Source of the DNA: Acutalibacteraceae bacterium
GTDB taxonomy: Bacteria; Bacillota; Clostridia; Oscillospirales; Acutalibacteraceae
Assembly: GCA_045651765.1 (NCBI GenBank)
Contig: JAZRSY010000008.1
Coordinates: 35,388 to 99,387 of the forward strand
Length of the DNA: 64,000 nt
Reading direction: 5' to 3'
A program made the position numbers and the translations under genes. The notes under the pieces are model-generated. The model searched no databases. It was not told the DNA's origin and saw nothing but the letters and a program-made list of their open reading frames with translations. This document shows, piece by piece, positions 5,784 to 64,000 of this stretch (the stretch's first letter is position 1; each line of letters starts with the position of its first letter).

Positions 5784-5794
5784 TAACCAAATTA

Positions 5795-5819
5795 ATAGGG
5801 CGGGTTAAACCGCCCTATA
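5795..5819 (+). terminator. Stem-loop between dnaK and dnaJ (possible attenuator or processing site)
   Basis: ATAGGGCGG-gttaaa-CCGCCCTAT, a 9-bp GC-rich stem. No clean U-tract follows, so it is probably partial termination or mRNA stabilisation rather than a full stop. Confidence 0.4.
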
Positions 5820-5843
5820 CCCTATTACATAGGAGAGTTTTTT

Positions 5844-27199: not shown

Positions 27200-27209
27200 A
27201 ACATACCTC

Positions 27210-40537: not shown

Positions 40538-40566
40538 TACTTTTAACCCCCTAACAAAAACTTAAA

Positions 40567-40591
40567 GGCTGCGGCGAACTTTGCCGCAGCC
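40567..40591 (-). terminator. Intra-operon hairpin between the TAXI receptor and the permease
   Basis: GGCTGCGGC-gaacttt-GCCGCAGCC, a 9-bp GC stem. On the minus strand it is followed by TTTAAGTTTTT. Confidence 0.55.
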
Positions 40592-40618
40592 CGAATTCAA
40601 CAACTAAAGCAAACAAAA

Positions 40619-41572: not shown

Positions 41573-41670
41573 AACTTCTCCTCCTAAATTTAAATATTTC
41601 CTATTAATTATACTATATTTTAAGTTATATTGCAAGGCAAAATTTTAAGCGTAATTTACACTAAATAAAA

Positions 41671-46810: not shown

Positions 46811-46896
46811 AATATCAGTCCTCCAACTATATTATTGGAAAAACAACTTTAAAGATACATTTTATTATAACAAATTTTAACACATAATTCAAGATT

Positions 46897-46931
46897 TAAA
46901 AAACCGCAGTTAAAAAATAACCGCGGTTTTT
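46897..46931 (-). terminator. Terminator after clpC
   Basis: AAAAAACCGC...GCGGTTTTTT with a long A-rich loop, 3 nt downstream of the clpC stop. Confidence 0.6.
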
Positions 46932-46933
46932 TG

Positions 46934-49372
46934 TTATTCAAATACATATTGACCGTTTTGGTAACTGCAGGTAACCGAATCGCCTTTTTTAATGGTGCCT
47001 TCAAGCATTAATTCGCTTAATTTGTCTTCAATATTATTTTGTATTGCGCGCCTTAACGGACGGGCGCCATAAACGGCATCGTACCCTTCGTTTGCCACGG
47101 CACTCACGGCAGATTCTTTGAACTCGGCCGTAATTCCAAGGTTTTTAAGTTTTTCAGCCAAATTTTCCAACATATTTTGAGCAATGGTTGTTATTTGCTC
47201 GGTGCTTAATTTGTGGAAAACTATGGTATCGTCAATGCGGTTTAAAAATTCGGGCCTAAAGGTCTTTTTAAGTTCGGCTATTACAAGGCTTTTTATATTG
47301 TCGTAATCGGTGTCGCTGCCTTGCTCCACACCAAAACCAAAGGCCTGCTTTTTTTCGGTTATAAGGCGGGCACCAATGTTAGATGTCATAATAATAACGG
47401 TGTTTTTAAAATCTACCTTACGGCCGGCCGAATCGGTTAAGATGCCATCGTCTAATATTTGCAACAAAATATTAAAAACATCGGGGTGGGCCTTTTCAAT
47501 CTCGTCAAAAAGCACCACAGAATATGGTTTTTTCCTAACCTGCTCGGTAAGTTGGCCGCCCTCTTCAAACCCAATGTAACCGGGCGGCGAACCAATCAAG
47601 CGTGAAACGGTGTGTTTTTCCATATATTCCGACATATCCAGCCTTATTATTGCCGATTCATTGCCAAACATGGCCTCGGCCAAGGCTTTGCAAAGCTCGG
47701 TTTTGCCAACACCCGTGGGGCCTAAAAATATAAACGAGCCTATTGGCCTGTTTGGGTCTTTAAGGCCGACTCTGCCGCGGCGTATTGCCTTGGAAACTGC
47801 CTTAACGGCCTCGTTCTGACCAACAATGCGGCCATGCAAAACATTTTCTAAATTAAGAAGCCTTTGGCTTTCGGACTCGGTTAACTGTGTAACCGGAACG
47901 CCACTCCAGGCCGATACAATATTGGCAATATCTTCGGCGTCCACCACGCCGTTGGCCGTTTCACCCTTCCATTCGGTGCGGTTTTGGTTTAATTTTAAAT
48001 TAAGTTCTCGTTCGCGGTCGCGCAGACTTGCCGCTAATTCAAAATCTTGGCTGTTAATGGCAGCCTCTTTTTGTTTGGAAATATCGGCAATTTGCGCCTC
48101 TAAATTTTTAATATCCTGTGGGGCCACCGAATTTTTAAGCCGCACCTTAGAGCCCGCTTCGTCAATTAAATCTATTGCCTTGTCGGGCAAATATCGGTCG
48201 GTTATATAACGGGCTGAGAGTTCTACCGCTGCCTTAATGGCTTGGTCGGTAAACTTAACCGAATGGTGTTGCTCGTATTTTTGTATTAACCCTTTTAATA
48301 TTAAAATCGAATCTTCGGTGCTTGGCTCGCCAACATTTACAGGCTGAAAGCGGCGCTCTAAGGCCGAGTCTTTTTCAATATATTTGCGGTATTCATTCAG
48401 CGTTGTGGCACCTATAACCTGCATTTCGCCTCGGGCGAGTGATGGTTTTAATATATTTGCGGCGTCGGTAGAGCCTTCTGCCGAGCCTGCGCCCACAATG
48501 TTATGAATTTCGTCTATAAACAAAATAACATCTTGGTTTTTAATAACCTCATCAATTACCGCCTTAATTCTTTCTTCAAAATCTCCCCTATATTTTGTGC
48601 CGGCCACCATACCTGTTAAATCAAGCGACACAACCCTTTTATTAAGCAAAATTTCGGGGACATCGTTTTGTGAAATCTTAAGTGCCAAGCCCTCGGCAAT
48701 GGCGGGTTTGCCAACGCCCGGCTCGCCGATTAAGCAAGGGTTGTTTTTTTGGCGGCGACATAAAATTTGTATAACCCTTTCTATTTCGTCGCTCCTGCCA
48801 ATAACGGGGTCGATTTTGCCGTTTTTAGCGGCAGCGGTTAAATCTCGGCCGTATTTTTCAAGGGTTGGGGTTTTGCCGTTTTTGTTTTCGGGTTTGTTTT
48901 CAAAATTACTGTTGCCGTTATATTCATTACTTACCCCTGCAGCATTAAGTGCGGCCGAGGTTAAAAAAGCAACATCTACACCCAGTTTATTAATAAACCT
49001 GATGGCGTAATTATCATTTTCACTTAAAATTCCAATAAGCAAATGTTCGGTGCCAACCTGTTTTTTGTTAAGATTAAAGGCTCCGTTTGTGGCAACCTCG
49101 ATGGCCTTTTTAGCCCTTTGGGTAAAATAATCGGGTGAAAGATTTGTAACATTGCCCTTGCCAATGGTTTTTACAATTAAATCCTCAATTTTTTCGGCAG
49201 TTATATTGTTTTTTACAAGTATTGTCGAGGCAACACCGCTGCCGCCCTTTAAAATACCAAGTAAAATATGTTCGCTGCCAATATATGTGTGCCCCATTAA
49301 TTCTGCCGAGCTTATTGCTAAGTTCAAGGCCTCGTTGGCCTTTTGGGTAAACCCGTTAAAATTATATTTCAT
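46934..49372 (-). CDS. clpC: ATP-dependent Clp protease ATP-binding subunit ClpC (D1 Walker A reads GKP, not GKT)
   Basis: 812 aa. It has N-terminal Clp_N repeats, D1 ([15 protein letters not shown], Walker B ILFIDEIH), a UVR-like M-domain, and D2 ([26 protein letters not shown]). It is the last gene of ctsR-mcsA-mcsB-clpC. Confidence 0.95.
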
Positions 49373-49400
49373 TTAAAGCACCTCTTAAAATTAAATTACA

Positions 49401-50408
49401 TTACAAGGCTTCCCTTATAAAGCTCGCCCTTTTTATGTCACGCTCGCGAGAATCTAGTTCGCCAAACGCACGCATTAACATATTGGGTTGGCCTTCTACT
49501 AATAATTTTATGGGCAAGGAAGCATCTATATTAATTATGCCCATGCCAACACCTAATTTAATCAGCGATAAATGTCTTAGCATTTCTTTGCTGCTTAAAA
49601 GTCGTGCATTTTTTAAAATTCCAAAGGCCCTGAAAATTTCATCTTCTAAAAGTTGTTTGTCGGTTTTTTCGCGGGCCTCTAATTCTTTGGCAATAAACTG
49701 TTTTGCAATGGCCTCAAGGTTATCAAGGGCGTCTTGCTCGGTTATTCCCAAAGTGATTTGGTTAGAAAGTTGGTATAAATTTGCCCCTGCGTTGCTGCCC
49801 TCGCCATAAAGGCCGCGCATTGTAAACCCAATTTTATTAACCGATTCGGTAAGTTCCCTTACTGCCGAAGAATAATCAAGCATTGGTAAATGCATCATTA
49901 CCGACGCCCTAAGGCCTGTGCCAATGTTGGTTGGGCATTCAGTTAAAAAACCAAGTTCACTGTTATATGCAAAACCTAATTTTTGGCAAAGCAATGTGTC
50001 TAACCTTTCGGCAATGTCGTAAGCCTCTTTTAAATTAAGGCCTGTTTTTAAAACCTGAATTCTAAGGTGGTCTTCTTCGCCAATCATCACCGAAACCGAT
50101 TCGTCTTCCGAAATTATTATGCCGCGTGTGCTGTAAGAACCAGCAAACTCAGGGCTTATTATATGGCGTTCTACCATGGCATAAACTTCGCGCTCGGGCA
50201 CATCGCCCATATCAATATACCTTAAATTTTTGGCAAAAGGAGCGTTAATTTCAAGCAACGCTTTTTTTACCTTTTGGGTCATCTCGGACCGTTGTTGCTC
50301 GCTCATTTTAGAGGGAAACGGAAACCCTGTAATGTTGCGGGCTAATCTTATGCGTGAGGTAACTATAATGTCCGATTCCGGCCCTATTTCATTATACCAA
50401 TTAGCCAT
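49401..50408 (-). CDS. mcsB: Protein arginine kinase McsB
   Basis: 335 aa. Phosphagen-kinase-like motifs EEDHLRIQ and CPTNIGTGLRASVM. Confidence 0.94.
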   Translation of the reverse strand: MANWYNEIGPESDIIVTSRIRLARNITGFPFPSKMSEQQRSEMTQKVKKALLEINAPFAKNLRYIDMGDVPEREVYAMVERHIISPEFAGSYSTRGIIISEDESVSVMIGEEDHLRIQVLKTGLNLKEAYDIAERLDTLLCQKLGFAYNSELGFLTECPTNIGTGLRASVMMHLPMLDYSSAVRELTESVNKIGFTMRGLYGEGSNAGANLYQLSNQITLGITEQDALDNLEAIAKQFIAKELEAREKTDKQLLEDEIFRAFGILKNARLLSSKEMLRHLSLIKLGVGMGIINIDASLPIKLLVEGQPNMLMRAFGELDSRERDIKRASFIREAL

Positions 50409-50410
50409 TT

Positions 50411-50902
50411 TTATTTCTCCTTTGCTTCTAATTCTTTAATTTCGTCGCGCACCTTTGCGGCGGCTTCAAATTCTTCGCGGGCCACAAGGTCGTTTAAATG
50501 TTGTTTTAAAAGCGCTATTCGGTTGGGTTCTGCCACGGCCAGCGGTGCGCTGTTGGGCACCTTGCCAATGTGTTTTATGCTGCCGTGTACCCTTTTAATA
50601 TATGGCAATAAATCGTTATAAAATTCGTTATAACACTCGGCACAGCCCACCTTGCCCGACTCGATAATCTCGCTAAAACTGGTGCCGCAACCTGCGCACC
50701 TTTTGGTGTTAAGACCTGCATTTTCGGTTAGCATATCGCCCAAAAATGACGACAACATCCCGGCAATGCTGCCACTGCCAAGACCTGTAAAGCCCAACTT
50801 GGCGGCGCAACTGCCACATAAATATTTTTGGGTTGAAACCCCGTTTATTACCTTTTTTATATGGGTTGTAGCGGTGTTTTTACCGCAGTTTTCACATAAC
50901 AT
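50411..50902 (-). CDS. mcsA: McsA (McsB activator; zinc-finger plus UVR domain)
   Basis: 163 aa. CENCGK...CGSCA and CAGCG...CAECY zinc motifs, with a C-terminal UVR motif EEFEAAAKVRDEIKELE. Confidence 0.92.
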   Translation of the reverse strand: MLCENCGKNTATTHIKKVINGVSTQKYLCGSCAAKLGFTGLGSGSIAGMLSSFLGDMLTENAGLNTKRCAGCGTSFSEIIESGKVGCAECYNEFYNDLLPYIKRVHGSIKHIGKVPNSAPLAVAEPNRIALLKQHLNDLVAREEFEAAAKVRDEIKELEAKEK

Positions 50903-50916
50903 AATAATTTTCCCCC

Positions 50917-51369
50917 TTAAAGTTGTGTTAAAAGCATTTGCTTAAGTAATGCTGCTCGCAATTCGTCGCGATATTCTATCGGAACGGTACGAAGCGCAGT
51001 GTCGGCCACAACCGACTTAAAAATTCTGGCGGCTTCATCGTTAATTAAAGAAGATTGCAAACAATTCTCTATAAGTATACGCGCTGAAAAGGCATCTATG
51101 GCAGTGCCAAGTGAATTTATTATATGCATTATTGCAGAAGAACGGTTTAAAGTTACCCTTTTAATGCGAATATATCCGCCGCCGCCACGCCTACTCTCTA
51201 TAATATAGCCGTGCTCGGGTGTAAAACGCGAAGACAACACATAGTTAATTTGGCTGGGCACACAACCCATTAAGCCTGCAAACTCGTTACGTTGAATTTC
51301 GGCGGTATTGTCTTCTGAACTGTTTAACAATTTTATAATTTCTTCGGTTATTAAATCACTTAATCGCAT
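50917..51369 (-). CDS. ctsR: Class III stress-gene repressor CtsR
   Basis: 150 aa. MRLSDLITEEIIKLL...RNEFAGLMGCVPSQINYVLSSRFTPEHGYIIESRRGGGGYIRI is the canonical CtsR HTH plus glycine-rich loop. Confidence 0.95.
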   Translation of the reverse strand: MRLSDLITEEIIKLLNSSEDNTAEIQRNEFAGLMGCVPSQINYVLSSRFTPEHGYIIESRRGGGGYIRIKRVTLNRSSAIMHIINSLGTAIDAFSARILIENCLQSSLINDEAARIFKSVVADTALRTVPIEYRDELRAALLKQMLLTQL

Positions 51370-51688: not shown

Positions 51689-51747
51689 TTTACATTTTTA
51701 AAAAATTGTTATATATTTATTTTATAAAACAAACAGGAGTATACAAT

Positions 51748-52266
51748 ATGGATTTTTTAGAATTTGCCAAAAACAGATTTTCGGTTAGAAAATTTACACA
51801 AGAGCCGGTAAAACAAGAGCATATAGAAAAAATTTTAGATGCTGCAGCGCTGGCGCCCACAGGTTGCAACCTGCAACCGCAAAGAATTTTAGTTATTAAC
51901 AACCAAACAACACTAGAAAAACTAAAAAATTGCACACGCTGCCATTTTGATTGCACCGCTGCTTTTTTGGTTTGCTGCAACACTAAAGAAAGTTGGGTTA
52001 GAAAATACGATGGCGCAACAAGCGGCATAATTGATACATCTATTGTTGCCACACATATGATGTTAGAATCACACAATTTGGGCCTCGGCTGCACCTGGGT
52101 TATGCACTTTAACCCCCAGGCCATGCGCGAAGAATTTAACATACCAAGTTGTTTAGTGCCTGTTGCTTTGCTGGTTATGGGCTACCCCGCAAAAGACGCC
52201 GAACCGCTTGAAATGCACTTTAAAAGCAAAGAAAAACAAGAATTTGTTTTTTACAATGAATTTTAA
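51748..52266 (+). CDS. Nitroreductase-family (FMN-dependent) oxidoreductase
   Basis: ORF 51706..52266. The ATG at 51748 (MDFLEFAKNRFSVRKF...) follows an AGGAG RBS. RFSVRKF and APTGCNLQPQRILVI are typical nitroreductase N-terminal motifs. Confidence 0.88.
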   Translation: MDFLEFAKNRFSVRKFTQEPVKQEHIEKILDAAALAPTGCNLQPQRILVINNQTTLEKLKNCTRCHFDCTAAFLVCCNTKESWVRKYDGATSGIIDTSIVATHMMLESHNLGLGCTWVMHFNPQAMREEFNIPSCLVPVALLVMGYPAKDAEPLEMHFKSKEKQEFVFYNEF

Positions 52267-52273
52267 ATAATAA

Positions 52274-52306
52274 AAAAACACCCGAGGTTAAACCTCGGGT
52301 GTTTTT
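52274..52306. terminator. Bidirectional terminator (nitroreductase on plus, 8-gene ABC locus on minus)
   Basis: AAAAACACCCGAGG-ttaaa-CCTCGGGTGTTTTT. Confidence 0.9.
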
Positions 52307-52313: not shown

Positions 52314-53645
52314 TTATTTTGTTGCTAAAACTTGGTTAAGTTCTTCCATTTTAGCAGTGGCTTGGTTTTCCATTGATTGTATAAATGTTGTAATTTGTGC
52401 AGCGGTACCATTGTTGAATAGGTTCCAGTGGAAAGGATGAGTTTCGAATGTGAAAATATCACGAGAGATAGATTGATATTGATTATCGGTGGCCAATAAG
52501 GTCATCATAACATCATAAGCTTGCTCATTGTAATAATATGAGTGTGGCTCGTAATTAGCAAGGTTAGCAAAATAACCAACAAAGTAAGGAACAGCAGCCG
52601 GGTTCTTAGCACCTGTGGCAATGGAGAAACCTATTGTTTCGTTTATAGGTGTGAAAGCCTCTTTGCCTTCAAACTTGGGCATTGGAACAGCCTTAAAGTT
52701 ACCATATTTTTGAATTTTCATGGTTGCGTTTTCAGTTTCTAAAACATGAGTGTTACCAATTGCAAACAAGGTTGTGGGCTTCATGGAATCGAAAGTACCT
52801 GCGCCTTGTGTGAAGATTCTGTTAGCGCGGCCTTCTAATAAGAATTTCCAAGCATCTAACAGATCGGCATCGTAAAGGTTAAGGGAATATTTTGAACCGT
52901 CATATGTAACAAAGTCTTTACCAATAGTTTCGCCGGCCATATTGTAAAAAACGGTCTGCATGCCGTAATAATCGGTGCCTTGTTTAACCCATTCTTCGCT
53001 CATTTCTTCTAATTTTTCCCAGGTCCATTCGCCTTTTTTATAAAGCTCCCATGGGTCTTCAAAGCCCATTTCTTCCATAACTCTAGTGTTATAAACTATG
53101 ATAGTGAACCTTTTAAATGGTGTGTAAGAAAGACCAAATGCATAAGGAGTGCCGTTAACCGAATATAAATCGGCAGTGGATTTGCTCCAAGCAGGGCCTG
53201 AGAAATCGTAACCTGTTACAGAGATAGGTTGCGAGAACTTCATAGCATTAAATGTAGGTGTGTAGTTTGTGTAAACATCGGGGGAATCGCCGGTAGCTAC
53301 CATGGCTGCTAACTTTTCGTTATAAGTATCGCCATATTGGGCATCTATAATCTCAACATTAATGCCCGATTCTTGTTTAAACCTGTCAATAACTTGACCC
53401 TCTTGGCCGAAATCATACGGGTCGTACCAGTTCAAGAACCTAACAGTTGTGCCCTTAAGTTCTGCCGGCACTGAAGCGATTAATGCAGCTGAATCGAGTG
53501 CATTTTCGGCAGAAACACCAGCTTGTGTGCCTACATTATTGCCTCCATTGCCACCATTGCCACTATTGCCGCCGCAAGCAGCAACCGAAAGTGCCAACAA
53601 AAGAACAAGCATAAGGGCAACTATTTTTTTAATAGTTTTAGACAT
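52314..53645 (-). CDS. ABC transporter extracellular solute-binding lipoprotein (sugar/CUT1-like)
   Basis: 443 aa. Lipobox LSVAACGG followed by a Gly/Asn-rich linker. It has typical SBP_bac_1 size and composition and is the last gene of the locus. Confidence 0.82.
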   Translation of the reverse strand: MSKTIKKIVALMLVLLLALSVAACGGNSGNGGNGGNNVGTQAGVSAENALDSAALIASVPAELKGTTVRFLNWYDPYDFGQEGQVIDRFKQESGINVEIIDAQYGDTYNEKLAAMVATGDSPDVYTNYTPTFNAMKFSQPISVTGYDFSGPAWSKSTADLYSVNGTPYAFGLSYTPFKRFTIIVYNTRVMEEMGFEDPWELYKKGEWTWEKLEEMSEEWVKQGTDYYGMQTVFYNMAGETIGKDFVTYDGSKYSLNLYDADLLDAWKFLLEGRANRIFTQGAGTFDSMKPTTLFAIGNTHVLETENATMKIQKYGNFKAVPMPKFEGKEAFTPINETIGFSIATGAKNPAAVPYFVGYFANLANYEPHSYYYNEQAYDVMMTLLATDNQYQSISRDIFTFETHPFHWNLFNNGTAAQITTFIQSMENQATAKMEELNQVLATK

Positions 53646-53694: not shown

Positions 53695-54657
53695 TTAACC
53701 TACAATTCCTACTCTGTCAATACTTTTTATGAAATTTTTTTGCATTATACAATACATAACAAGCATAGGTAAAATGAACAACAAGCAAGCCGCCATTACA
53801 GCACCCGAAGAACTATTTGCATATTGGTCTAGGCCGAATGCACTCACTTTATTATATATTTTAGAAAGATTTACTGCTAAAATATCACTGTTGGTAAAGT
53901 ACATTTCGCAAAGGTAAGAATCGTTCCAGTGCCAAATAACACTGAATATTGTAACGGTTAAGAATGCAACGCCAGAAGACGGTACAACGATTGATAAGAA
54001 TGTTTTTATAGGACCTGCGCCATCAATAGAGGCGGCCTCTTCAAGTTCTTTGGGCATACCCTTATAGAACTGAACAAATATGAATATGAAAAGACCGGCT
54101 TTGAGTCCCACACCTAAAATACTTGGCAAATAGAATGCCCACGGGGTATTAAGCAAATTAGGTCGAATATCGGTTCCGATTAGGTTGCCTATTAATTTTA
54201 AAATTCCAAGGCAATCAAAATAACGCATGTTAAGCATTAACGGAATCATAATCATATTAGTTGGGATTAATATGGTTAAAATGAGGAAAAACATTAATAG
54301 TTTTTTCTCTTTAAAATCAAACCTTGCAAGACCGTATGCAAACACAGAGCAAGAAACAACCTCGATTAATCCTGAAACTATTTCGGTTTTAAGGGTATTA
54401 AACAAACCTATTGGGTATTGTAAAGCCTTCCACGCGATAGACATATTCTCTAACGTGTAGTGCTTAGAAATCCATACAACCGTTTGGTCTTCAAAATCGT
54501 AAATATGTCGGAACGAAACCGAAAGCATATAAATTAACGGGTATATGATAACGTAGCCTACAAGTAACAAAAATGCCCAACGTAATATTGTAACAACAAC
54601 AGATGTTGCTTTCTGCCTTGCCTTAAGAGGAGAAATTTCTTTATTAAATAATGTCAT
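53695..54657 (-). CDS. Carbohydrate ABC transporter permease (MalG-like)
   Basis: ORF 53695..54693. The ATG at 54657 (MTLFNKE...) follows an AAGGGGGA RBS. It has 6 TM helices and an EAA loop, EEAASIDGAGPIKTFLSIVVP. Confidence 0.88.
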   Translation of the reverse strand: MTLFNKEISPLKARQKATSVVVTILRWAFLLLVGYVIIYPLIYMLSVSFRHIYDFEDQTVVWISKHYTLENMSIAWKALQYPIGLFNTLKTEIVSGLIEVVSCSVFAYGLARFDFKEKKLLMFFLILTILIPTNMIMIPLMLNMRYFDCLGILKLIGNLIGTDIRPNLLNTPWAFYLPSILGVGLKAGLFIFIFVQFYKGMPKELEEAASIDGAGPIKTFLSIVVPSSGVAFLTVTIFSVIWHWNDSYLCEMYFTNSDILAVNLSKIYNKVSAFGLDQYANSSSGAVMAACLLFILPMLVMYCIMQKNFIKSIDRVGIVG

Positions 54658-54671
54658 TTTGTTTTCCCCCT

Positions 54672-55586
54672 TTAAGACCAGCGTTTTAGGCATAACTTGT
54701 TATAAACTGCAAGTATTACTGCCATGAAAACACCTATTATTAAAAAGTAAAGCCACAGCATTGCCGAAGATTTGTCGTAAACCTGTTGGCCGCTCATTAG
54801 ATCGAACGCCATAGACATTATATACTTTCTGGTTGTTATTAGGTCTATCATGGTGTAAACCATAACAAGTAAAATGTTTTGACCTAACATTGGGAAGGTA
54901 ATGTACCAAAATTCTTCCCATTTAGAACAACCTTCAACCTTAGCAACCTCATAAAGAGATTCAGGTATAGACTGCAAACCCGAAATAAACAGAATAATTT
55001 GAATTCCGCAGTTCCATAAAAGGTTAAATATACCGCTTATGTAACCCGAAATCAACTCGGTTAATTCGGCGGGCAGGCCTAAATTTTCTAGTACTTTATC
55101 AAAATTTATCATATTGCCGTAGGTGCCGGCAGACTCGCCCGAGGTAGCACCAATTATCATACCGCTTTTTGATAAATAATCAATAATAACACCGGTTGCT
55201 ATTATTACAGGCAAAAAGTAAATTGCCCTCATTACAATTCTGCCTTTGAATTTTTGGTTAAGAATAATGGCAAGAATTAAACTTAATGCCAAAATAATGG
55301 GAAGCTGAACCAAAAACACTCCCACGGCATCTTTAAGTCGGTTTAAGTAATCCGGGTCTTGATTGATTATGTCATTGAACCACTTAAAGCCTACAAATTT
55401 TGCCTCTACACCGCCCGAAATAATTCTTACATCGGAAAAGGCATAGCGTATAGAGTTAATAATTGGCATTACAAAGAACAATATTAAACCTATCTCCCAC
55501 GGGAGAACGAACAGTCTGCCATATCTGCTTTTTAAGGCCTCAACGCCTTTTGTTTTCTTTTTGATTTTTGTACCCAAACTGTTCAC
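54672..55586 (-). CDS. Sugar ABC transporter permease (MalF-like)
   Basis: 304 aa (GTG start, or the TTG at 55577) with 6 TM helices and an EAA-like loop, YEVAKVEGCSKWEEFWYITFPML. Confidence 0.85.
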   Translation of the reverse strand: MNSLGTKIKKKTKGVEALKSRYGRLFVLPWEIGLILFFVMPIINSIRYAFSDVRIISGGVEAKFVGFKWFNDIINQDPDYLNRLKDAVGVFLVQLPIILALSLILAIILNQKFKGRIVMRAIYFLPVIIATGVIIDYLSKSGMIIGATSGESAGTYGNMINFDKVLENLGLPAELTELISGYISGIFNLLWNCGIQIILFISGLQSIPESLYEVAKVEGCSKWEEFWYITFPMLGQNILLVMVYTMIDLITTRKYIMSMAFDLMSGQQVYDKSSAMLWLYFLIIGVFMAVILAVYNKLCLKRWS

Positions 55587-55590: not shown

Positions 55591-57810
55591 TTATTTAATT
55601 ACCAAATAGTCGTTGGCTTTAACTATGCCATCGGCTACGGTGTAATCGGAATTCGAATAATTTACATAAGTTTTAACGCCATTTGCGAAGGTTGTGCAAC
55701 GAACATCTTTTGTTATGAGTTCGTGGTTTACAATTGTTTGACCACTTATTGCACTGTAATAATCTTTAAATTCGTTGCCGGCATTAATAATAACATCTTT
55801 ATTACCTTTGTAAAGGCCACCGTATAAATCTTTATGTGGTGAAAGTGTTATGGTCTCGTTATAGTTGTTGTAAAGTGTAAACAACATTGAAGAACCTGTT
55901 TCAAGAGCATAAAGCTTTTTAGTTTCAAAACTCTCGCCCGCGTTCATAGCCTCGGATGTGATTTCGGTTTTTCCTTTAAATATCATTTGGTAGAAAGGAA
56001 TATCAGCCGTGAACATATCTTGTTTAGATGATGTGTGCGGAGCTTCGAAAATACAATCGGCAATTTGTGCAGCATAAACATTAGCGCCTGTGGCAGCAAA
56101 CGAATAACCATTTTGCTTGTAGTTGTTGGCAATTTCGCTTACCTGTGCGCCCATGCCGTTTTTAGCATAATATTCATCCGACGTATAATCGGAATAAGCG
56201 TTTGATGTTATGCTGGCAAAGCTAACGCCGCTAATATTATATTTACCGATTTTCTTGAGCAATTTGTTAGCAATTGCATCTAACTTTGTTCTGGTAATTA
56301 ACCTGTGGCGACTGTAATTGTCAACATCAGGTATATGAGCACCTCTGCTTATTTGATACACGTAAGCCGAGGCTTTAGTGGCTGTTTTGGCGGTGTCGAA
56401 TGTGTTATAACCGCCGCCTGCCTTAGCAAATTCGCTAATATTGAAATCTACAAACGAATCTATTCCGTTTTGTTTACAATATTCGGTAAGACTATTTAAC
56501 TCTTTTTTGCTGCCGAACTTGTTTGCTAACTTAAAGTTGCCGGCAATTTTGCTTATATCTAAGCCCGATTCGCCAAATCCATAAAGTTGAATATTGGGTT
56601 TAACGCCGGTTACCGAAAGTTCATTTAAAATGTTAGAAATATCGGAATATGTGGTAAGTGCCAATAATGATTTATACGGGAAGCCTATAAAGTTTTTCTG
56701 TTGACCTAAACCACCAATAAACTTAAGCGAATAAACCGAATCTTCTACATCGCTTGCAGCGTCATTGTTACCATAAAGGTATTCTTGGTACAACCTAGCC
56801 ATACCGTTATAGTTGGCATTCGCGTCGCTCAGTGGATAATAATCCACCGTGAACACGGCTTTTTCTAAGCGCTCGTCAGAATATAATTCCGAATCGTTTC
56901 CACTGCCCGACTGAATATAGGTGTAGTCGCTGTTGCGCAAATCAAAACTGGCGCAAATTGAACTGTAACCCGTTACATTGTCGGCTACTGTTGCGTTTAT
57001 TGATGCTGAATCGGCACCCGAAGAAATTATGGCAAGCACCGCATTGTTTCCTGTTTTAATGCCGTAAACCGGTAAATAAACATTCTTTTCGTTGGTTTGT
57101 TTGTCCTTAATTTTTCTGGCAGCATCGTTTCCGTAAACCTCTGACGAGGTTGTCATTTTTTCGGTTACGGGCTTGCTAATGTCAATTAAAGCACCGCTGC
57201 CCGACGGATAGAACATATAGGAATCAGCCTGGCCATGTGGAGCCGAGCATAAATAAGGTGCTACTTGAATGCTGTAAACCAAGTTCTCATTTTCAACAAT
57301 TTTAGATGTATCTATAGAAATGCTCATGCCTTTTTCTTTAAGAGAATAGGTTACAGGAATTAAAATTTCAGCATCTTTAAACAAATAGGTTACTGTAACA
57401 GCACCATCTGTAATTTCGGCCGAATATGTGCCCTTATTAACACTGTGAGTATAGGCTCTGGCGTCGGCAATGGCGTTTTCTTCGGCCATTTTATATGAAA
57501 CTAAAATTGCCGATTCTAAATAATTCCTTTGCCTTGCTTGTTTTTCTTCGGTTGGGGTGTTCATATAACCTTCCGGTGTGGTTGACCACTGAACACCCGT
57601 TGCCTTATCGGTAAGAACTACACATTTTTCGTCGTTATTCCAAGAAAGTATAAAATTGCTGTTTTCGTTAATAACGCCTTCTTGAATTTTTGCTTTAGGC
57701 AAAAGTGAGGTAACATCAACTGTAACCGTTTTGCCACAGCCTGCCATAGTGGTAACCAGCATAATTGCACAGATAGCGAAACTAACAAATTTTAATATAA
57801 ATTTTTTCAT
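55591..57810 (-). CDS. Large extracellular lipoprotein of unknown function (DUF5696-like by recollection; possibly glycosidase-like)
   Basis: 739 aa with lipobox TTMAGCGK. I can read no recognised catalytic motif. It sits between the two ABC permease pairs. Confidence 0.6.
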   Translation of the reverse strand: MKKFILKFVSFAICAIMLVTTMAGCGKTVTVDVTSLLPKAKIQEGVINENSNFILSWNNDEKCVVLTDKATGVQWSTTPEGYMNTPTEEKQARQRNYLESAILVSYKMAEENAIADARAYTHSVNKGTYSAEITDGAVTVTYLFKDAEILIPVTYSLKEKGMSISIDTSKIVENENLVYSIQVAPYLCSAPHGQADSYMFYPSGSGALIDISKPVTEKMTTSSEVYGNDAARKIKDKQTNEKNVYLPVYGIKTGNNAVLAIISSGADSASINATVADNVTGYSSICASFDLRNSDYTYIQSGSGNDSELYSDERLEKAVFTVDYYPLSDANANYNGMARLYQEYLYGNNDAASDVEDSVYSLKFIGGLGQQKNFIGFPYKSLLALTTYSDISNILNELSVTGVKPNIQLYGFGESGLDISKIAGNFKLANKFGSKKELNSLTEYCKQNGIDSFVDFNISEFAKAGGGYNTFDTAKTATKASAYVYQISRGAHIPDVDNYSRHRLITRTKLDAIANKLLKKIGKYNISGVSFASITSNAYSDYTSDEYYAKNGMGAQVSEIANNYKQNGYSFAATGANVYAAQIADCIFEAPHTSSKQDMFTADIPFYQMIFKGKTEITSEAMNAGESFETKKLYALETGSSMLFTLYNNYNETITLSPHKDLYGGLYKGNKDVIINAGNEFKDYYSAISGQTIVNHELITKDVRCTTFANGVKTYVNYSNSDYTVADGIVKANDYLVIK

Positions 57811-57829: not shown

Positions 57830-59962
57830 TTATCTGAAGAACAGTTCCATTGCAACTGTTTCTATGAAAATTTTAACCTGCTGGCATAAAATAAACATCA
57901 TGAATATTAAGAATATAATTAATATCATTGCTAACAGGGTTATAATTGTTGTGAACACAAATTTTCCAAAGGTAAATTCGTGCAGGTTGATAAGCCCCAT
58001 AACAAGAATAACACCTGTTAATATAATGCAAACATAATTAAGTATTGCTAATATATTAGCTTCGTTAAGGGTTAATACATTAGATAAAATATCGTAACCT
58101 ATTGCCTGAATTATCATTGGGATTAAGCTATAACTTGTTACAATATATATATCCTTTAACTTACCTTTACCCTCAAACAATGTGGTAACAGCCCAGTTGG
58201 CAACAGTAAACAAAATTACAAGGCCAAATGTTTGGGCTAAGGCATACCATGCGTTAACATCTTTAATGCTGGAATCGTTAAAAATAAATCCTGTTGAAAG
58301 ACCTATTATTTTAAACACATACCAAACGGCTAAAAATGCAGTTGCTATTAAAACAGAGCCGCCTTTGTTATTTTTAATTTCATAAAAAGTGTCGGCCGGG
58401 TGCAATAATGTTGAAATTGCTGTTTTAAATTTATAGTTTTTAATTAAAACAATGTTTTTCTTCTTTTTCCAATGTAAGAATAATATTAAAGCAACAACCA
58501 AAACAACAATTATTGCAACAATTAACACGAAGTTTTTGGTTAGAAAATCTTTTCTTACATATTCATACGCACGGCTATAGGTTGTGCGGTCCACACCTTT
58601 TTTAGCGTAATCTAAAGCTTCGTGGTAATTTTCTTGTAAAAGTTTTGCTTTAGCAATACCGCGATATGCCAAAATGTTATTAACATCTAGTTCTAAAACT
58701 TTGTTCCAATATGCTTCGGCATCGTTATAATCGCCCGAAATAGTTAAGTTTTGGGCTGTTTGAACTAAATCGCCATATGCGTTGCGACCAAACACGGTAA
58801 TATTGTTTTTAATGGCATCCACTACATATAACTTTCCGTTCATGGTGCTAATGGCTTTGGAACTTTTAAATGTGCCTTCTTGCGAGCCGAAATATACACC
58901 GCCGCCTATTGTAGTAATAAGGTTACATTCGTTATCGTAAACATAAATTCTGCCATAGGCAACGTCGCACACATAAATGAAGTTATTTTCATCTATGCAA
59001 ATGCTGGCCATATCGTGTCCTAATTCACGTGCGCCGTATTTAATCATTTCCTCGGTGGCAAACATAACACTTGCGGAATCAGAAACATCGGTTCCTGATT
59101 TATCTTTTAATATGTTTGTTCCTATTGGGTTAAGTTTTTTAACCGAACCTGTTGCCGAGGCTGTAGCTTCTGTGGAACCTGTACAGGTGTAAATATAACC
59201 GTCGGGACCAAGCTCCATATCTACAAACGAGAAAGGTAATATCTTTTCGCTTTTAGAAAGTTTTATATCGTTTTGGAAAAGCATATCCCAAAGGTTATTC
59301 ATGGCGTCTAATATGGTGGTACTTACAGAGTTAGCGCCAAAGAAGCCTTTGAACTCGTAATCGGGGGTGTACATTGCAGCACCGTGGTAGCTACCTTCAC
59401 ACAAAACGTATAAATAGTCCATTTCGTCTTTAACTATTTTAATTGGTGAATAGTGAAGCGATTCCGGCCACATTACAGTATCGGGTTTCTCTAACACCGT
59501 TGTAACATTGCCCAAAGTGTCGCCAATAAGCAAACGGTTATGTGCAGTGTCGGCTATGTAAAGAACATTATCTTCATCTATCAAAATGCCGCGAGCATCT
59601 TTAAAATCGCTAACTTCGCCATTAATTGTTACACTGCTAATAACACTAATAAGATTAAAGTTTTCATCGGTTATAACAATTTTGCCCGAGGCAGAATCTA
59701 ATATATAAATTTTGCCGTCGGTAGCATAAATATCATATAACGAACCAAAATTTTCAAGACCTAAATCGGCCGCTATAATGGTTTTTTCGTGCTCAAACAT
59801 CGGCCTTGTGTAAACCATTTCTTTTTTGCCCTGGCTACCGGCCCAATTTGATACAGCATCGTTAACGCTATCGCCAAATTCGGCAGCAGAAGCTGTTATG
59901 TTAAATGTAAAAAGGCAAAGGGCGCACAACAAAACCGCTAAAATTCTTTTAAAGTTTTTCAT
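57830..59962 (-). CDS. Fusion protein: signal peptide, NHL-repeat beta-propeller, TPR, and C-terminal Yip1-type polytopic membrane domain
   Basis: 710 aa. NHL-like blades IYILDSASGKIVITD, LYIADTAHNRLLIGD, IYVCDVAYGRIYVYD and LYVVDAIKNNITVFG. TPR-like segment DYNDAEAYWNKVLELDVNNILAYRGIAKAKLLQENYHEALDYAKKG. About 6 TM helices follow from residue ~470. Confidence 0.65.
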   Translation of the reverse strand: MKNFKRILAVLLCALCLFTFNITASAAEFGDSVNDAVSNWAGSQGKKEMVYTRPMFEHEKTIIAADLGLENFGSLYDIYATDGKIYILDSASGKIVITDENFNLISVISSVTINGEVSDFKDARGILIDEDNVLYIADTAHNRLLIGDTLGNVTTVLEKPDTVMWPESLHYSPIKIVKDEMDYLYVLCEGSYHGAAMYTPDYEFKGFFGANSVSTTILDAMNNLWDMLFQNDIKLSKSEKILPFSFVDMELGPDGYIYTCTGSTEATASATGSVKKLNPIGTNILKDKSGTDVSDSASVMFATEEMIKYGARELGHDMASICIDENNFIYVCDVAYGRIYVYDNECNLITTIGGGVYFGSQEGTFKSSKAISTMNGKLYVVDAIKNNITVFGRNAYGDLVQTAQNLTISGDYNDAEAYWNKVLELDVNNILAYRGIAKAKLLQENYHEALDYAKKGVDRTTYSRAYEYVRKDFLTKNFVLIVAIIVVLVVALILFLHWKKKKNIVLIKNYKFKTAISTLLHPADTFYEIKNNKGGSVLIATAFLAVWYVFKIIGLSTGFIFNDSSIKDVNAWYALAQTFGLVILFTVANWAVTTLFEGKGKLKDIYIVTSYSLIPMIIQAIGYDILSNVLTLNEANILAILNYVCIILTGVILVMGLINLHEFTFGKFVFTTIITLLAMILIIFLIFMMFILCQQVKIFIETVAMELFFR

Positions 59963-59976: not shown

Positions 59977-60882
59977 TTAATCCTTCATACCGGAATTACT
60001 CATGGTTTCCATTACATTACTTTGTGAAATCAAATACACAATTATAGGCGGAATCATCATAATTACGGTGGTGGCCATGGCGTTACCGGCACGGGCAATA
60101 CCGCCTGCTGTAATCTGGCTCATTGCCGATGGCAGTGTTTTTAAAGATTCGGTAAATATTGTAGATACCGTACCTGTGGCCCACATTCCGCTGAACGAGA
60201 ACAACAACAATGTTAACCAACAAGGTTTAACCATTGGCATTAATATTTTCCAGAAAATGAGCGGATAGCCTGCACCGTCAATACGGGCGGCTTCAAGCAA
60301 TGCATCGGGCACCGAGGCGTCCATATATTGTTTCATAAGGAATACACCCATTGCTGATGGTATTGCGGGTAGAATATACACCCAATATGTATCAATAATG
60401 CCCATTTTTGAGAAAATAATATATTGTGGAACAAACAATGTTGTACCGTTATATAATAGCGCAAACTGAACAATCAAGAAAACAACGGTGCGCCATTTGT
60501 ATTTGCTTTTTGAAAAGAAGAAGGCTGCTGCCGCTGCACATAAAATATGCAAAACGGTACCAACTATGGTAATGAAAATACTGTTGAACACATACCTTGA
60601 AAGCGGAACCTGCAATTTAGAAAGCAGTGAAGGCAACAGTGTATAGTTGGAAATTGTTGGCCTTTTTACAAAAAACCTTGGTGGGAAAATTAAAATTTCA
60701 TCCAACGGTTTAAGTGAAGTTGATACCGAATAAACTAAAGGTAAAACGCTAATAATACCAAAACCTAACAGCATAATTACAAATATTGTTGTAACAGCCT
60801 TGGAACGAGTATAGCGTTTGTACTGTAATTCGCTTGTATCAAACAATTTAAATTTACGAAGTTTATCCCTAAATTTTTTCAT
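59977..60882 (-). CDS. Carbohydrate ABC transporter permease (MalG-like)
   Basis: 301 aa with 6 TM helices and an EAA loop, LEAARIDGAGYPLIFWKILMPMVKP. Confidence 0.88.
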   Translation of the reverse strand: MKKFRDKLRKFKLFDTSELQYKRYTRSKAVTTIFVIMLLGFGIISVLPLVYSVSTSLKPLDEILIFPPRFFVKRPTISNYTLLPSLLSKLQVPLSRYVFNSIFITIVGTVLHILCAAAAAFFFSKSKYKWRTVVFLIVQFALLYNGTTLFVPQYIIFSKMGIIDTYWVYILPAIPSAMGVFLMKQYMDASVPDALLEAARIDGAGYPLIFWKILMPMVKPCWLTLLLFSFSGMWATGTVSTIFTESLKTLPSAMSQITAGGIARAGNAMATTVIMMIPPIIVYLISQSNVMETMSNSGMKD

Positions 60883-60896: not shown

Positions 60897-61853
60897 CTAT
60901 TTACCCATTCTGTTAAGTAGTTTTGCAACTACATTACGGAATATTGCCATCATGGCAAACAAGAATATAGAAATTGCTGCTGCATAGCCCATTTCCATAC
61001 GTGTGTTGGCAACGTCACCCAAATATGTAACTATTGTGTCGGCGCAGTTGTTAACCGTTGGGTAACCGCAAAGCGTTGTTATGGTGGCACCTATTGAGAA
61101 AGCGCCTGCAATTTGCATAACCGCACCAAACAAAAGAATTTCTTTCATACATGGTAGGGTTATATACCAAAGTTCTTGCCAACGGTTTCTAATACCGTCT
61201 ATAGCGCCGGCTTCAAAAAGTGACACATCTAAGCCCTGCAAACCTGCAATATCGGCCAAGAAAGAAACGCCTATACTCGACCAAATTGTAATTGCAATTA
61301 TAATTGGCACAATGTATGTTGGGTTGGAAAGCCATAAAATAGGCTCGTTTATAAGACCCACGCTCAAGAGTGCACTGTTAACATAACCGTAAGAGTCGCT
61401 GCTGAAGGCAATTTGCCAAATAAAGAAGGCGTTACCAACAAGTGCCGGAGCATAGAATAAAAACGACATAAAGGAACGAACCTTTGGATTAAACTCGTTT
61501 ATAAACCAAGCCAATACATAGGAAAGTAAAAATCCTGCAGGGGCGGTTGCTACGGCCAAAATAAGTGTGTTGGTTGTTATTTTTATAAATAAATCATCGG
61601 TAACGAACATACGAAGGAAGTTGTCAAGCCCTATAAACTTAGGGGCCGATAACATATCGTAAGAGAAGAAACTTAAAACAAGTGAAACCACTATTGGCAG
61701 TGCTGTAAATAAGCCAAATAAAATAAAGAAAGGAAGGGCCAGCGAAAATAACGATATCTCACTACCGCCAAACGACGACTTGCTTTTTTTCTTTTTAATA
61801 ACTTTATTGTTAGTCAAGGTTATATTCGCCTCTCTTTCTTTCAATTTCGGCAT
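60897..61853 (-). CDS. Sugar ABC transporter permease (MalF-like)
   Basis: ORF 60897..61859 starts at a TTG. Alternative starts are the ATG at 61853 and an in-frame TTG at 61817 that overlaps the upstream stop. It has 6 TM helices and an EAA loop, FEAGAIDGIRNRWQELWYITLPCM. The start is uncertain. Confidence 0.8.
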   Translation of the reverse strand: MPKLKEREANITLTNNKVIKKKKSKSSFGGSEISLFSLALPFFILFGLFTALPIVVSLVLSFFSYDMLSAPKFIGLDNFLRMFVTDDLFIKITTNTLILAVATAPAGFLLSYVLAWFINEFNPKVRSFMSFLFYAPALVGNAFFIWQIAFSSDSYGYVNSALLSVGLINEPILWLSNPTYIVPIIIAITIWSSIGVSFLADIAGLQGLDVSLFEAGAIDGIRNRWQELWYITLPCMKEILLFGAVMQIAGAFSIGATITTLCGYPTVNNCADTIVTYLGDVANTRMEMGYAAAISIFLFAMMAIFRNVVAKLLNRMGK

Positions 61854-64000
61854 CGGCAATTTTTGCCCATTTGAAAATCATATCTTTCGGGTTTTCCGAA
61901 AGGTTGATAACATTTTGGAAAGCCTGCATTACCGAACGCTCTACATAATAGCCACCGGGAACCTCTTTAAGTCCTTTAACATAACTCCAGGCGTCTAACA
62001 TAATTTCAAGGTCGTTAGATTCCCAAGAAAGCATCTTAAAGGCCTCAACATTGGCTGTTGTTCTACGGCCAACTTCACCTAAAATGGCCTCTAACATAAC
62101 CGAATATCTGTATTGTGTATTGGCGTTTGTCCACCATTTTAAGAAGGTCCAGGCCTCATCTTTATGTTTGCTTATATTTGGTATAACACAAGCAGTACCG
62201 GTGTCGGACTGAGCATAGTTGATAACTCCGTCTTCACCCATTGTACCCGGCATTTTAGCAATGCCCCATTTGCCTACAATTTCGGGGGCTGCTTGGCTGA
62301 ACAAGGTGTAGTTTGTATAACCTGAAACGCCCATTGGCATTGTGCCCGCACGGAAACGGTTGTATAAATCGAAGCTTACCGGGAAGCTTAGGTTGGTGTA
62401 ATAATCGGTCCATTCAACAAAGGTTTCAACTGCGGCACCATTTAAGAAGTTGGTGCGGTCGTTTTCGGTGTAAACCGGAATGTTCTTTTGCATTAAACGT
62501 GTTGAATAAACATTAAGTGTGGTACTTAACATTCCGCCTGAAACAACACCTGTCGGCAAACCAACCTGCAGGTTTTGCCTTTGAAGCAAGGCTGTAACAT
62601 TCCTAAACTCTTCCCAAGTTTTAGGTGGTTCAATGCCTATTTCTTCAAAAATATCGGTTCTGTAGAAAAGAATCGAGAAATCTTGTGTATCGGGTATACC
62701 ATAAATTGCATTACCTAATTTATATGGGTCGTCGGCACCGGGTTGGAAGCGCTTAACAACCTCGTTGTAATCGGGGAAGTTAGATAAATCGTATAACGCG
62801 CCACGCATTCCGTAGTTTACCGGCTCGGTACGGCCTTGACCTATAAGCAGGTCAGGTCCGCTACCGGCTAAAATAGCCTGAATGAGCGATGCGCCAACTA
62901 TTTGAACATTAACATTAATGTTGGGGTTTTCTGCCTCGAAAGAGTCTTTAATAAGTGAGGTTAAAATTTGTGTTTGGTCACGGCCCCAGGTTACCCATAA
63001 AGTAAGGGTGGTTTTGTCCTTAGTGCTTTCGGTGCTATAACTGTATTCGTCCATAAACGAAACCAAGAAGCGTTCGGCCGAGAATTTAGTCTTTTCCCAC
63101 CAGTTTGCCATTTTAAACTCATAATCCTTTTCGGGTGAGGCTAAAATAATTTGGTCTAAATCGAGTGGTAGTTTTGCAACGTCGGAAACAAGAGCAGTTA
63201 ACGAGCAATAGTTATCGTAATAACTTTGCACGTATTTTTGTGCGCTATATTGGTTTTCAAGCATATCGCGCATTACACGCACCATATTTTGAATGGTCGA
63301 AACATATGTACCGCTTTCTTCCTGGGTTATTTCTATAATCCTTTTGGAAACAGCCTCAAGGCTTTCTATGTTAGCGGCAAGGGTTTCGTTAAATTGCGGT
63401 ATGTTTTTAAAGAATTCATAACTACGGCCGGCGTCTATTTTTTCGCCCGTAATCATTTTAATTTTAAGGTAAAGGTTACCAACATCGTAGGCAACATCGT
63501 TAATTTGGCGACTAACCTCACCAAATTCGCCCAAAGTAACGCTAAGGCTTATGGTGCGTTTGCCTTTTTTTAAATAAATGAGAGCCGGCTCATCCGAACC
63601 TGCATTAAGTTCAGAGAATTGCCAGTTACCATCGTAATAGAACGGAACACTTGCGGCCTCGGTAAACGGATTTTTACCGTCAATTTTAAGGTTACGGTAA
63701 GAGTTACCGCTTATAACTACATTTTGGCGGTACCTAAAAGCCATTCTGTAAAGGCCATCTTCGGGTATATACACTTCCCAAGAAATGGTGTCGTTAGGTT
63801 TTTGCCAACCTGTGCCACCTATGTAGTTAATAATATTTTTAAATGCCTCGGAAGGTGTAAGGCTTGGGTCGCTGTTATCTATAAGAGGGTTAATAGAAGC
63901 GGTGCTTTTGTAGGTTGCTTTTTCGCCTTCTATAAGAATATCGGCTCCGGTGTAGTTTTTATAACCGTTTTGTTCGTATTCTTTAGCCACTTGTTCGTAA
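61810..64000 (-). CDS. Oversized ABC solute-binding protein with an N-terminal lectin/CBM-like beta-sandwich and helical linker (5' end beyond the right edge)
   Basis: More than 729 aa. The frame is open to base 64000 and the listed start is only an internal GTG. The N-terminal part reads WQKPNDTISWEVYIPEDGLYRMAFRYRQN...YRNLKIDGKNPF (CBM-like). Next comes a ~150-aa helical region. A canonical SBP domain then starts near TLTLWVTWGRDQTQILTSLIKDSFEAENPNINVNVQ. Confidence 0.75.
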   Translation of the reverse strand, partial: YEQVAKEYEQNGYKNYTGADILIEGEKATYKSTASINPLIDNSDPSLTPSEAFKNIINYIGGTGWQKPNDTISWEVYIPEDGLYRMAFRYRQNVVISGNSYRNLKIDGKNPFTEAASVPFYYDGNWQFSELNAGSDEPALIYLKKGKRTISLSVTLGEFGEVSRQINDVAYDVGNLYLKIKMITGEKIDAGRSYEFFKNIPQFNETLAANIESLEAVSKRIIEITQEESGTYVSTIQNMVRVMRDMLENQYSAQKYVQSYYDNYCSLTALVSDVAKLPLDLDQIILASPEKDYEFKMANWWEKTKFSAERFLVSFMDEYSYSTESTKDKTTLTLWVTWGRDQTQILTSLIKDSFEAENPNINVNVQIVGASLIQAILAGSGPDLLIGQGRTEPVNYGMRGALYDLSNFPDYNEVVKRFQPGADDPYKLGNAIYGIPDTQDFSILFYRTDIFEEIGIEPPKTWEEFRNVTALLQRQNLQVGLPTGVVSGGMLSTTLNVYSTRLMQKNIPVYTENDRTNFLNGAAVETFVEWTDYYTNLSFPVSFDLYNRFRAGTMPMGVSGYTNYTLFSQAAPEIVGKWGIAKMPGTMGEDGVINYAQSDTGTACVIPNISKHKDEAWTFLKWWTNANTQYRYSVMLEAILGEVGRRTTANVEAFKMLSWESNDLEIMLDAWSYVKGLKEVPGGYYVERSVMQAFQNVINLSENPKDMIFKWAKIADAEIERKRGEYNLD

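Follow-up and report, generated by a model that had tools for sequence, protein, structure and literature searches.

A predicted NHL-TPR-Yip1 membrane protein encoded in a conserved, putative carbohydrate ABC importer cassette of Clostridia

Introduction

The sole characterised bacterial member of the Yip1 family that our literature searches returned is YknW of Bacillus subtilis. YknW, which is small and consists of a Yip1 domain only, is reported to interface with the other components of the YknXYZ ABC transporter and to modulate how they assemble (PMC4887032, PMC4338810). It protects against the SDP toxin, and its transporter is a MacB-type exporter with a membrane-fusion protein (MFP). Here we describe a gene that joins a Yip1 domain to an extracellular NHL beta-propeller and TPR motifs, found at positions 57830-59962 (minus strand) of a 64,000-nucleotide stretch of Acutalibacteraceae DNA (contig JAZRSY010000008.1, positions 35,388 to 99,387; hereafter the window). 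Like YknW, its product is a bacterial Yip1 polytopic membrane protein encoded inside an ABC transporter operon. Unlike YknW, it carries a 450-amino-acid (aa) extracellular NHL-TPR module and an extra transmembrane (TM) helix, its operon encodes type I importer permeases of the BPD_transp_1 family, and that operon contains neither an MFP nor an ATPase. A preliminary description of the window had held that bacterial Yip1 homologues have no established role, a view that the reported role of YknW contradicts.

Other described systems resemble parts of the locus. With the eukaryotic Yip1/Yif1 (YIPF) proteins of the Golgi and endoplasmic reticulum, the protein shares a full-length PF04893 match and a five-TM core; by our own reading, (S/C)Y..P in TM4 and HP.D.F before the first Yip1 TM helix also resemble the GY and DLYGP motifs of the family. 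It lacks the cytosolic Rab-binding N-terminal region of YIPF proteins, having an extracellular extension instead, and its context is nutrient transport and not vesicle traffic; bacteria have no Rab system. Mycobacterium tuberculosis PknD (PDB 1rwi) likewise tethers a six-bladed NHL propeller to the outer side of a bacterial membrane through a TM segment, and it has a cytoplasmic Ser/Thr kinase as output where our protein has a Yip1 bundle and no signalling domain. Finally, the operon is similar to Gram-positive polysaccharide utilisation loci (PULs) with CUT1 importers in its SBP_bac_1 substrate-binding proteins (SBPs), its MalF/MalG-type permeases with EAA loops, the absence of an ATPase from the operon, its surface glycosidase-like lipoprotein and, in related loci, its variable flanks of carbohydrate-active enzymes (CAZymes; GH28, GH36, GH94, GH9). 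Unlike these PULs, it is built on an unvarying core of seven genes that includes two permease pairs and one SBP (about 970 aa, CBM35-like, without a lipid anchor), and in which the NHL-TPR-Yip1 protein and a DUF5696 protein are obligatory; no description of such a core was found in the searchable literature.

The protein truly belongs to the Yip1, NHL and TPR families, and the uncharacterised conserved cassette that encodes it is akin to carbohydrate ABC importers and, at a greater distance, to YknW. The protein is more interesting as part of this putative Gram-positive glycan-uptake machine than as a lone odd fusion. Much of the fibre in human and animal guts is degraded by Oscillospirales (Ruminococcaceae, Acutalibacteraceae). 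Far less is understood of the way in which these bacteria connect the breakdown of glycans outside the cell with uptake than of the Sus-like systems of Bacteroidota. The cassette moreover brings a bacterial Yip1 domain together with ABC importers; YknW serves an exporter.

Domain architecture and membrane topology

The gene is a 710-aa open reading frame (ORF) with an ATG start, preceded at 7 nt by a strong Shine-Dalgarno sequence, AAAGGGGGG. A Pfam scan placed Yip1 and NHL above their cutoffs and TPR below threshold in the single sequence. Yip1 (PF04893) scores 53.1 bits (gathering cutoff 28.6) over aa 517-685, covering model positions 2-172 of 173, and is matched in 50 of 50 aligned relatives. 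NHL (PF01436) is marginal in this protein alone, at 24.7 bits against a cutoff of 20; it is found in 39 of the 50 relatives, with a best value of 1.9e-17. Several TPR models reach about 19.6 bits, all of them below cutoff, and match in up to 15 of the 50 relatives. Against the PDB, the family profile recovers NHL propellers (Thin, 1e-21; TRIM2, 3e-15; the M. tuberculosis PknD sensor, 8e-12) and consensus TPR proteins (1.7e-9 to 5e-29, profile positions 406-459). On this profile evidence the NHL and TPR calls are weak for the single sequence but firm at the family level.

The AlphaFold2 (AF2) model (mean pLDDT 81.6, pTM 0.69) contains about 24 beta-strands within aa 37-393, assigned by DSSP, that form six four-stranded blades closed into a propeller (58784-59854, minus strand). 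Foldseek matched the model to the six-bladed NHL domains of Thin, TRIM71 and TRIM2 (E 1e-13, TM-scores 0.73-0.79), in keeping with the profile matches. The preliminary description had called NHL-like blades and counted at least four; the NHL assignment stands, and the model shows six. Four helices follow, at aa 395-408, 412-425, 430-442 and 446-455, and correspond to two TPR motifs (aa 395-455; 58598-58780, minus strand) in which the canonical residues W419, A432, Y433, G435, A437, A449 and Y452 are conserved across the family. The signature against which they were judged is that of paired antiparallel helices with W4, G8, Y11, A20 and A27. The TPR-like pair noted earlier is thus supported by both model and profile. 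Next comes a 44-residue juxtamembrane helix, aa 459-502 (58457-58588, minus strand), which contains the first TM helix (TM1) and leads into a lysine-rich cytoplasmic loop. Five further membrane helices are modelled beyond it. The last region (57833-58414, minus strand), defined by the Pfam match, the TM segments and invariant residues, comprises the five-TM Yip1 domain and a conserved C-terminal helix (QQ...E706...R710) predicted to be extracellular; stand-alone Yip1 genes align with it. The expectation of about six TM helices with a Yip1 domain is met by TM1 and the five-TM Yip1 bundle together.

Between blades 3 and 4 the ectodomain carries a family-specific insert (aa 204-243; 59234-59353, minus strand), a candidate partner interface. 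It consists of an FxGFFGANxV motif, an amphipathic helix (aa 217-228, hydrophobic moment 2.07) and a terminal LP, with F207, G209, N211 and P243 invariant. The insert is the best-conserved segment of the ectodomain yet the least confidently modelled, its pLDDT falling under 50 in two stretches (aa 211-221 and 230-243). In the family alignment the ectodomain shows no His, Cys, Ser, Glu or Lys that is conserved. Its near-invariant Asp residues occur one per blade, at a position of the NHL repeat as we read that repeat.

Topology was derived from hydropathy and charge distribution under the positive-inside rule. Hydropathy and sequence point to a Sec-type signal peptide at aa 1-26 (59885-59962, minus strand) with an ASA/AE cleavage site, as had been proposed before; the ASA motif is retained in the family consensus. 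The ectodomain that follows (aa 27-476, 452 aa) is net acidic. TM1 spans aa 477-497, with a hydropathy peak of 3.76 at aa 478-496, and the 38-aa loop behind it carries 9 lysine or arginine (K/R) residues. TM2-TM6 lie at aa 536-556, 573-596, 606-629, 637-660 and 668-692, in agreement with the AF2 helices, and the loops between them carry 1, 3, 0 and 1 K/R; the cytoplasmic loops measure 7-38 aa. By the positive-inside rule, these loop charges predict that the propeller and TPR motifs lie outside the cell. In homologues where the protein is split (see below), the propeller is preceded by an N-terminal signal peptide and followed by a C-terminal TM helix whose tail is rich in K/R, a layout that independently supports the same placement. 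Two findings would have spoken against the preliminary description, namely the lack of a significant Yip1 or NHL hidden Markov model (HMM) match and a cytoplasmic propeller; we looked for both and found neither.

A conserved seven-gene cassette

The protein belongs to a large family. Searches yielded 158 full-length homologues of 684-752 aa, and full-length relatives fall into at least about 135 clusters at 50% identity, from metagenome-assembled genomes (MAGs) of Acutalibacteraceae, Oscillospiraceae and other Clostridia. When 1.84 billion representatives were searched exhaustively with a profile, 2641 proteins matched at E<=1e-30, and the best 150 of these 2641 (E<1e-152) are nearly all full-length, at about 700 aa. 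Searching genomes with the protein itself gave four close MAG loci, including a goat-rectum Clostridia MAG and Acutalibacteraceae MAGs, and a metagenome search with the family alignment gave one truncated locus. The few homologues that carry names are annotated as 'YIP1 family protein' or 'hypothetical protein', in Clostridia or Ruminococcaceae MAGs. By these profile searches the architecture is common in gut metagenomes though uncharacterised. It had been called unusual, which holds relative to the literature; it is not rare, being that of a large conserved family. Full-text searches found no paper on the cassette, on DUF5696 or on PF18952.

The earlier remark that the gene lies in an ABC operon can be made more specific. 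Its neighbourhood is an invariant cassette: a big SBP (908-991 aa), two permeases, the propeller-TPR-TM and Yip1 parts, DUF5696 and two further permeases, in this order in 13 of 13 independent loci (the window and L006-L009, L001, L003, L004, L005, L010, L011, L012, L013, L014, L016 and L017). The order is held down to about 25% identity, and the best BLAST match of each component is the one in the syntenic position. The core holds two permease pairs, whose members all have EAA loops, but a single SBP. DUF5696 occupies the slot where an SBP gene would normally stand. In several related loci (L004, L010, L013 and L014 among them) the DUF5696 gene overlaps the second permease pair, and in several the Yip1 or fused gene overlaps the DUF5696 gene. 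No regulator gene is present in the conserved cassette across the loci examined.

The flanks of the cassette vary. Two paralogous whole cassettes, L016 and L017, occur in one sample (JGI 3300029305), one of them flanked by AraC and GH28 and the other by CBM_4_9, dockerin and beta-helix proteins. Elsewhere the cassette adjoins GH36, GH94 with PF10091 and GH35/42, or GH9-CBM3-dockerin. Such variation is what one would expect of a transport and processing engine of general use that recurs in different Gram-positive PULs.

Some relatives depart from the usual length. Insertions of 170-300 aa inside the propeller ectodomain are carried by three long ones (P0294, P0296 and P0349, of 1030, 897 and 1000 aa) and by the L011 gene at 4823-6829. 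We considered the three as possible permease fusions and rejected this, since the extra length consists of ectodomain insertions. The insertions appear beta-sandwich-like; one has a weak CBM_4_9 match (14.7 bits, not significant), and none of the insertions of these long relatives matched a PDB entry. A further hit, P0310, is a giant NHL-repeat protein of 7428 aa with 27 stretches matching the NHL part of the profile, and is unrelated to the cassette.

Fused and split forms

A protein search with the Yip1 part alone gave few matches, yet it revealed that the gene is not always one unit. In five loci (L004, L010, L011, L013 and L014) its slot is filled by two adjacent genes, whose stop and start often overlap. 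The first encodes 479-668 aa with a signal peptide, the NHL propeller, TPR motifs and one TM helix; the second encodes a five-TM Yip1 protein of 208-228 aa. In L004, L010 and L011 the ectodomain proteins match the ectodomain HMM at E 1e-67 to 1e-106 and the Yip1 proteins match the Yip1 HMM at E 1e-46 to 1e-50, while in L013 and L014 the evidence for a split is the size of the genes together with precomputed Pfam calls, a faint NHL and a Yip1. In the alignment, the break falls exactly within the cytoplasmic loop after TM1, which makes the region just behind the juxtamembrane helix the point of fusion or fission. Another candidate split form, L012, was rejected; where its gene breaks, the assembly has a stretch of N.

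Since five loci encode the two parts as separate adjacent genes, the gene in the window is a fusion of two cassette subunits (a Rosetta-stone case), and on these gene arrangements the two subunits must work side by side in the membrane. The fused and split versions found in nature show between which polypeptides an interaction is to be expected, which makes the system directly testable. The residues that survive in both forms are D458, Y462 and R470 of the juxtamembrane helix before TM1, and E706 and R710 of the C-terminal helix after TM6, outside the Pfam Yip1 model. Once split forms join the alignment, F207, G209 and N211 (FxGxN) are the sole fully conserved part of the insert, and its amphipathic helix and LP vary.

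The operon and its neighbouring components

In the window, the cassette forms the greater part of an operon of eight co-directional minus-strand genes, which extends from beyond position 64000 down to 52314 with intergenic gaps of -50 to +49 nt. The first gene is that of the big SBP_bac_1 protein (61810-64000, its 5' end outside the window; about 970 aa, SBP_bac_1 98.6 bits), with CBM35-like N-terminal modules and no lipobox. It is followed by the permeases P1a (60897-61859) and P1b (59977-60882), both BPD_transp_1 with an EAA loop, and by the NHL-TPR-Yip1 gene. Then come the DUF5696 lipoprotein gene (55591-57810; Pfam 418 bits, lipobox MAGC, GH129/GH101/GH36-like fold), permease P2a (54672-55586; a divergent BPD_transp_1 with an EAA-like loop) and permease P2b (53695-54693; BPD_transp_1, with the EAA loop read from the sequence as EEAASIDGAG). 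The last gene (52314-53645) encodes an ordinary 443-aa lipoprotein SBP with lipobox VAAC, which is not in the conserved core, and brings the operon to four BPD_transp_1 permeases and two SBP_bac_1 proteins. A strong bidirectional intrinsic terminator at 52274-52306 (15-bp stem, 7 GC pairs, T-runs on both strands) closes the operon. Pfam found no ABC_tran ATPase, no MFP and no MacB-type permease among the eight operon ORFs, and the window operon contains no regulator gene. Firmicutes often rely on a shared MsmK-type ATPase encoded elsewhere.

A full-length view of the big SBP is given by the 94%-identical orthologue in L006 (1851-4766), for which alternative start codons give a length of about 965-971 aa. 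The SBP domain of this orthologue begins at about residue 585, behind an N-terminal extension of about 580 aa with CBM35/CBM6-like modules; part of this extension matches the CBM35 region of the CITase 5x7g (E 7e-5), and one orthologue gives a faint CBM_6 match. In 9 of 9 loci the big SBP has a signal-peptidase-I-type signal and lacks a lipobox, whereas 7 of 7 ordinary SBPs of these loci, at about 450 aa (441-506 aa), have one. In a monoderm, an SBP that has no anchor must be retained in some other way.

The DUF5696 protein was modelled with high confidence (AF2, pLDDT 91.9) as a beta-sandwich, a TIM barrel and a beta domain. Foldseek matched it to the GH129 proteins ZgGH129 (E 3e-31) and NagBb (TM-score 0.72) and also to the GH101 and GH36 three-domain glycosidases, with TM-scores of 0.62-0.73 over the three families, and its family profile aligned with ZgGH129 in three collinear segments (E 4e-8); there is no structure for the DUF5696 family itself. 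D541 (96%) is the one strongly conserved Asp of the barrel; D229 (90%) and E637 (88%) are conserved as well, and conservation does not single out a catalytic pair. By predicted structure and profile, DUF5696 is thus a remote GH129/GH101/GH36-like protein: it shares the three-domain fold of these retaining alpha-glycosidases at about 12% sequence identity, and its glycosidase activity is putative. The L011 version of DUF5696 is enlarged, to 1030 aa. A conserved C-terminal peptide of the TPR-ligand type was looked for on the big SBP and on DUF5696, and none was found.

Possible roles of the NHL-TPR-Yip1 protein

There are several possible explanations for the presence of such a protein in a transport cassette. 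The one we favour, tentatively and at a little less than even odds, is that it is a non-catalytic accessory or docking/scaffold subunit of a multi-component carbohydrate ABC importer. By the domain and topology analysis, the Sec signal peptide exports the protein, the propeller and TPR motifs are exposed to the outside, and TM1 together with the five-TM Yip1 bundle holds them at the membrane; the protein occurs with the same transporter genes in every locus. In favour of an accessory role we count this architecture and topology, the invariance of the cassette, the fused and split forms, the operon structure in the window, the missing lipid anchor of the big SBPs, the lack of catalytic-type conserved residues in the ectodomain, the retention of FxGxN in both forms and the precedent of YknW. 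Fusion or fission of the genes and the invariant synteny are the indirect evidence that the protein associates physically with the transporter. The bundle may pack laterally on the TM domains of the ABC permeases, by analogy with YknW and YknXYZ. Propeller, TPR motifs and conserved insert could then act as a protein-docking platform which keeps extracellular partners at the permeases, above all the anchorless big SBP and possibly DUF5696. In a bacterium without an outer membrane, such docking would couple the capture and trimming of glycans to their uptake.

Several observations weigh against a docking role. Relative to its L001 orthologue the protein is 53% identical, compared with 79-80% for the permeases, 63% for the big SBP and 49% for DUF5696; it diverges about as fast as the substrate-facing components, a pattern with which direct substrate contact appears equally compatible. 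The beta-sandwich-like ectodomain insertions of some relatives, including the one with a CBM_4_9 score of 14.7 bits, hint at contact with carbohydrate. The big SBP could also stay at the cell because its signal anchor is not cleaved or because its CBM-like modules hold it, and not through this protein. The YknW analogy is also imperfect in that YknW belongs to a MacB-type exporter with an MFP and not to a type I importer.

The docking role can be extended to the cassette as a whole, as a Gram-positive surface 'utilisome'. Cleavage by signal peptidase I would turn the big SBP into a shuttle, free or held only loosely, that scavenges glycans (a 'glycophore', analogous to a hemophore), and the NHL-TPR-Yip1 protein would be its dedicated membrane receptor, docking the big SBP and DUF5696 onto the two permease pairs. 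We regard this joint proposal as speculative and improbable as a whole. If it were true, bacterial Yip1 domains would be general organisers of ABC transporter supercomplexes, and might offer a view of what the Yip1 fold of eukaryotes originally did.

Among the alternatives, substrate capture survives best, and we consider it unlikely but worth serious attention. Here the propeller, with or without the TPR motifs, would be a lectin-like binder of surface glycans that passes oligo- or polysaccharide to the big SBP, DUF5696 or the permeases. There is a precedent in BtuG, a surface beta-propeller that captures vitamin B12 for BtuB, and Foldseek does find BtuG propellers at E ~2e-9, with poor TM-scores. 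The divergence of the ectodomain, as fast as that of the SBP and the glycoside hydrolase-like protein, and the beta-sandwich insertions in some relatives fit a glycan binder, although the CBM-like match among them is not significant. The paralogous cassettes of a single sample also adjoin different CAZymes (GH28 versus CBM/dockerin/beta-helix), which likewise speaks for capture; yet the FxGxN core of the insert is identical despite these differing flanks, which suggests a constant partner and not a variable ligand. NHL domains mostly bind proteins or RNA, not glycans, and the characterised ones among our matches include RNA binders (TRIM71/Lin41). A docking or scaffold role fits the evidence at least as well as the substrate presentation that the preliminary description had suggested.

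It is improbable that the protein is an assembly or insertion factor only, in which case Yip1 would help to assemble the permease pairs or to localise DUF5696 and the big SBP during biogenesis without becoming a stable subunit. Eukaryotic Yip1 proteins act in membrane organisation. YknW is described as modulating assembly or oligomeric state (PMC4887032, PMC4338810), which is the precedent for this role. Against it, the large, strictly conserved ectodomain and the operon-level coupling suggest a stoichiometric component.

An extracellular enzyme is very unlikely. The propeller would in this case be a lyase, lactonase or hydrolase of the virginiamycin B lyase, PAL, Drp35 or SMP-30 type that modifies the substrate before uptake, and Foldseek matches to Vgb lyase, Drp35 and PAL (E ~1e-8 to 1e-9) as well as weak SGL and ScyF matches can be cited for it. 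We disfavour it because the enzyme propellers are poorer structural matches (TM-scores 0.55-0.6, against 0.73-0.79 for non-enzymatic NHL domains) and because residues of a catalytic type are not conserved: there is no conserved His triad and no Ca/Zn-type set of Glu/Asn/Asp, and the conserved Asp residues are per-blade structural positions.

Most unlikely of all is a transmembrane sensor, as raised in the preliminary description, whose propeller would detect substrate or envelope state and signal through Yip1 to the operon or transporter: the PknD sensor match (8e-12) and the sensor-like layout of an extracellular propeller on TM helices are outweighed because Pfam and NCBIfam find no kinase, GGDEF, helix-turn-helix or other output domain, with cytoplasmic loops of just 7-38 aa, because the conserved cassette lacks a regulator and the window operon is flanked by rplM-rpsI (seen in L006), nitroreductase and ctsR genes, and because the split forms uncouple the propeller from Yip1.

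Genomic surroundings

The boundaries of the operon consist of genes with other functions. Upstream, they are visible in the 94%-identical locus L006, where the operon starts directly after rplM-rpsI and a terminator. Downstream in the window lie a convergent nitroreductase gene (51706-52266) and the heat-shock genes ctsR-mcsA-mcsB-clpC, which together form the downstream boundary of the sugar operon. The latter belong to a class III heat-shock cluster typical of Firmicutes (46142-51369), in which genes for a ClpP-like protease and FtsK come after ctsR-mcsA-mcsB-clpC. At 38600-41635 the window encodes a TAXI-type TRAP transporter, composed of an NMT1_3 binding protein and a DctQM-like membrane protein of 645 aa that is a fusion; in L007 this pair is found upstream of the cassette. 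Lastly, the region 25679-29273 encodes two adjacent proteins, one of 687 aa that ends in a type I dockerin and one of 529 aa with a cadherin-like beta-sandwich, and by this pair the organism has cellulosome-type surface components.

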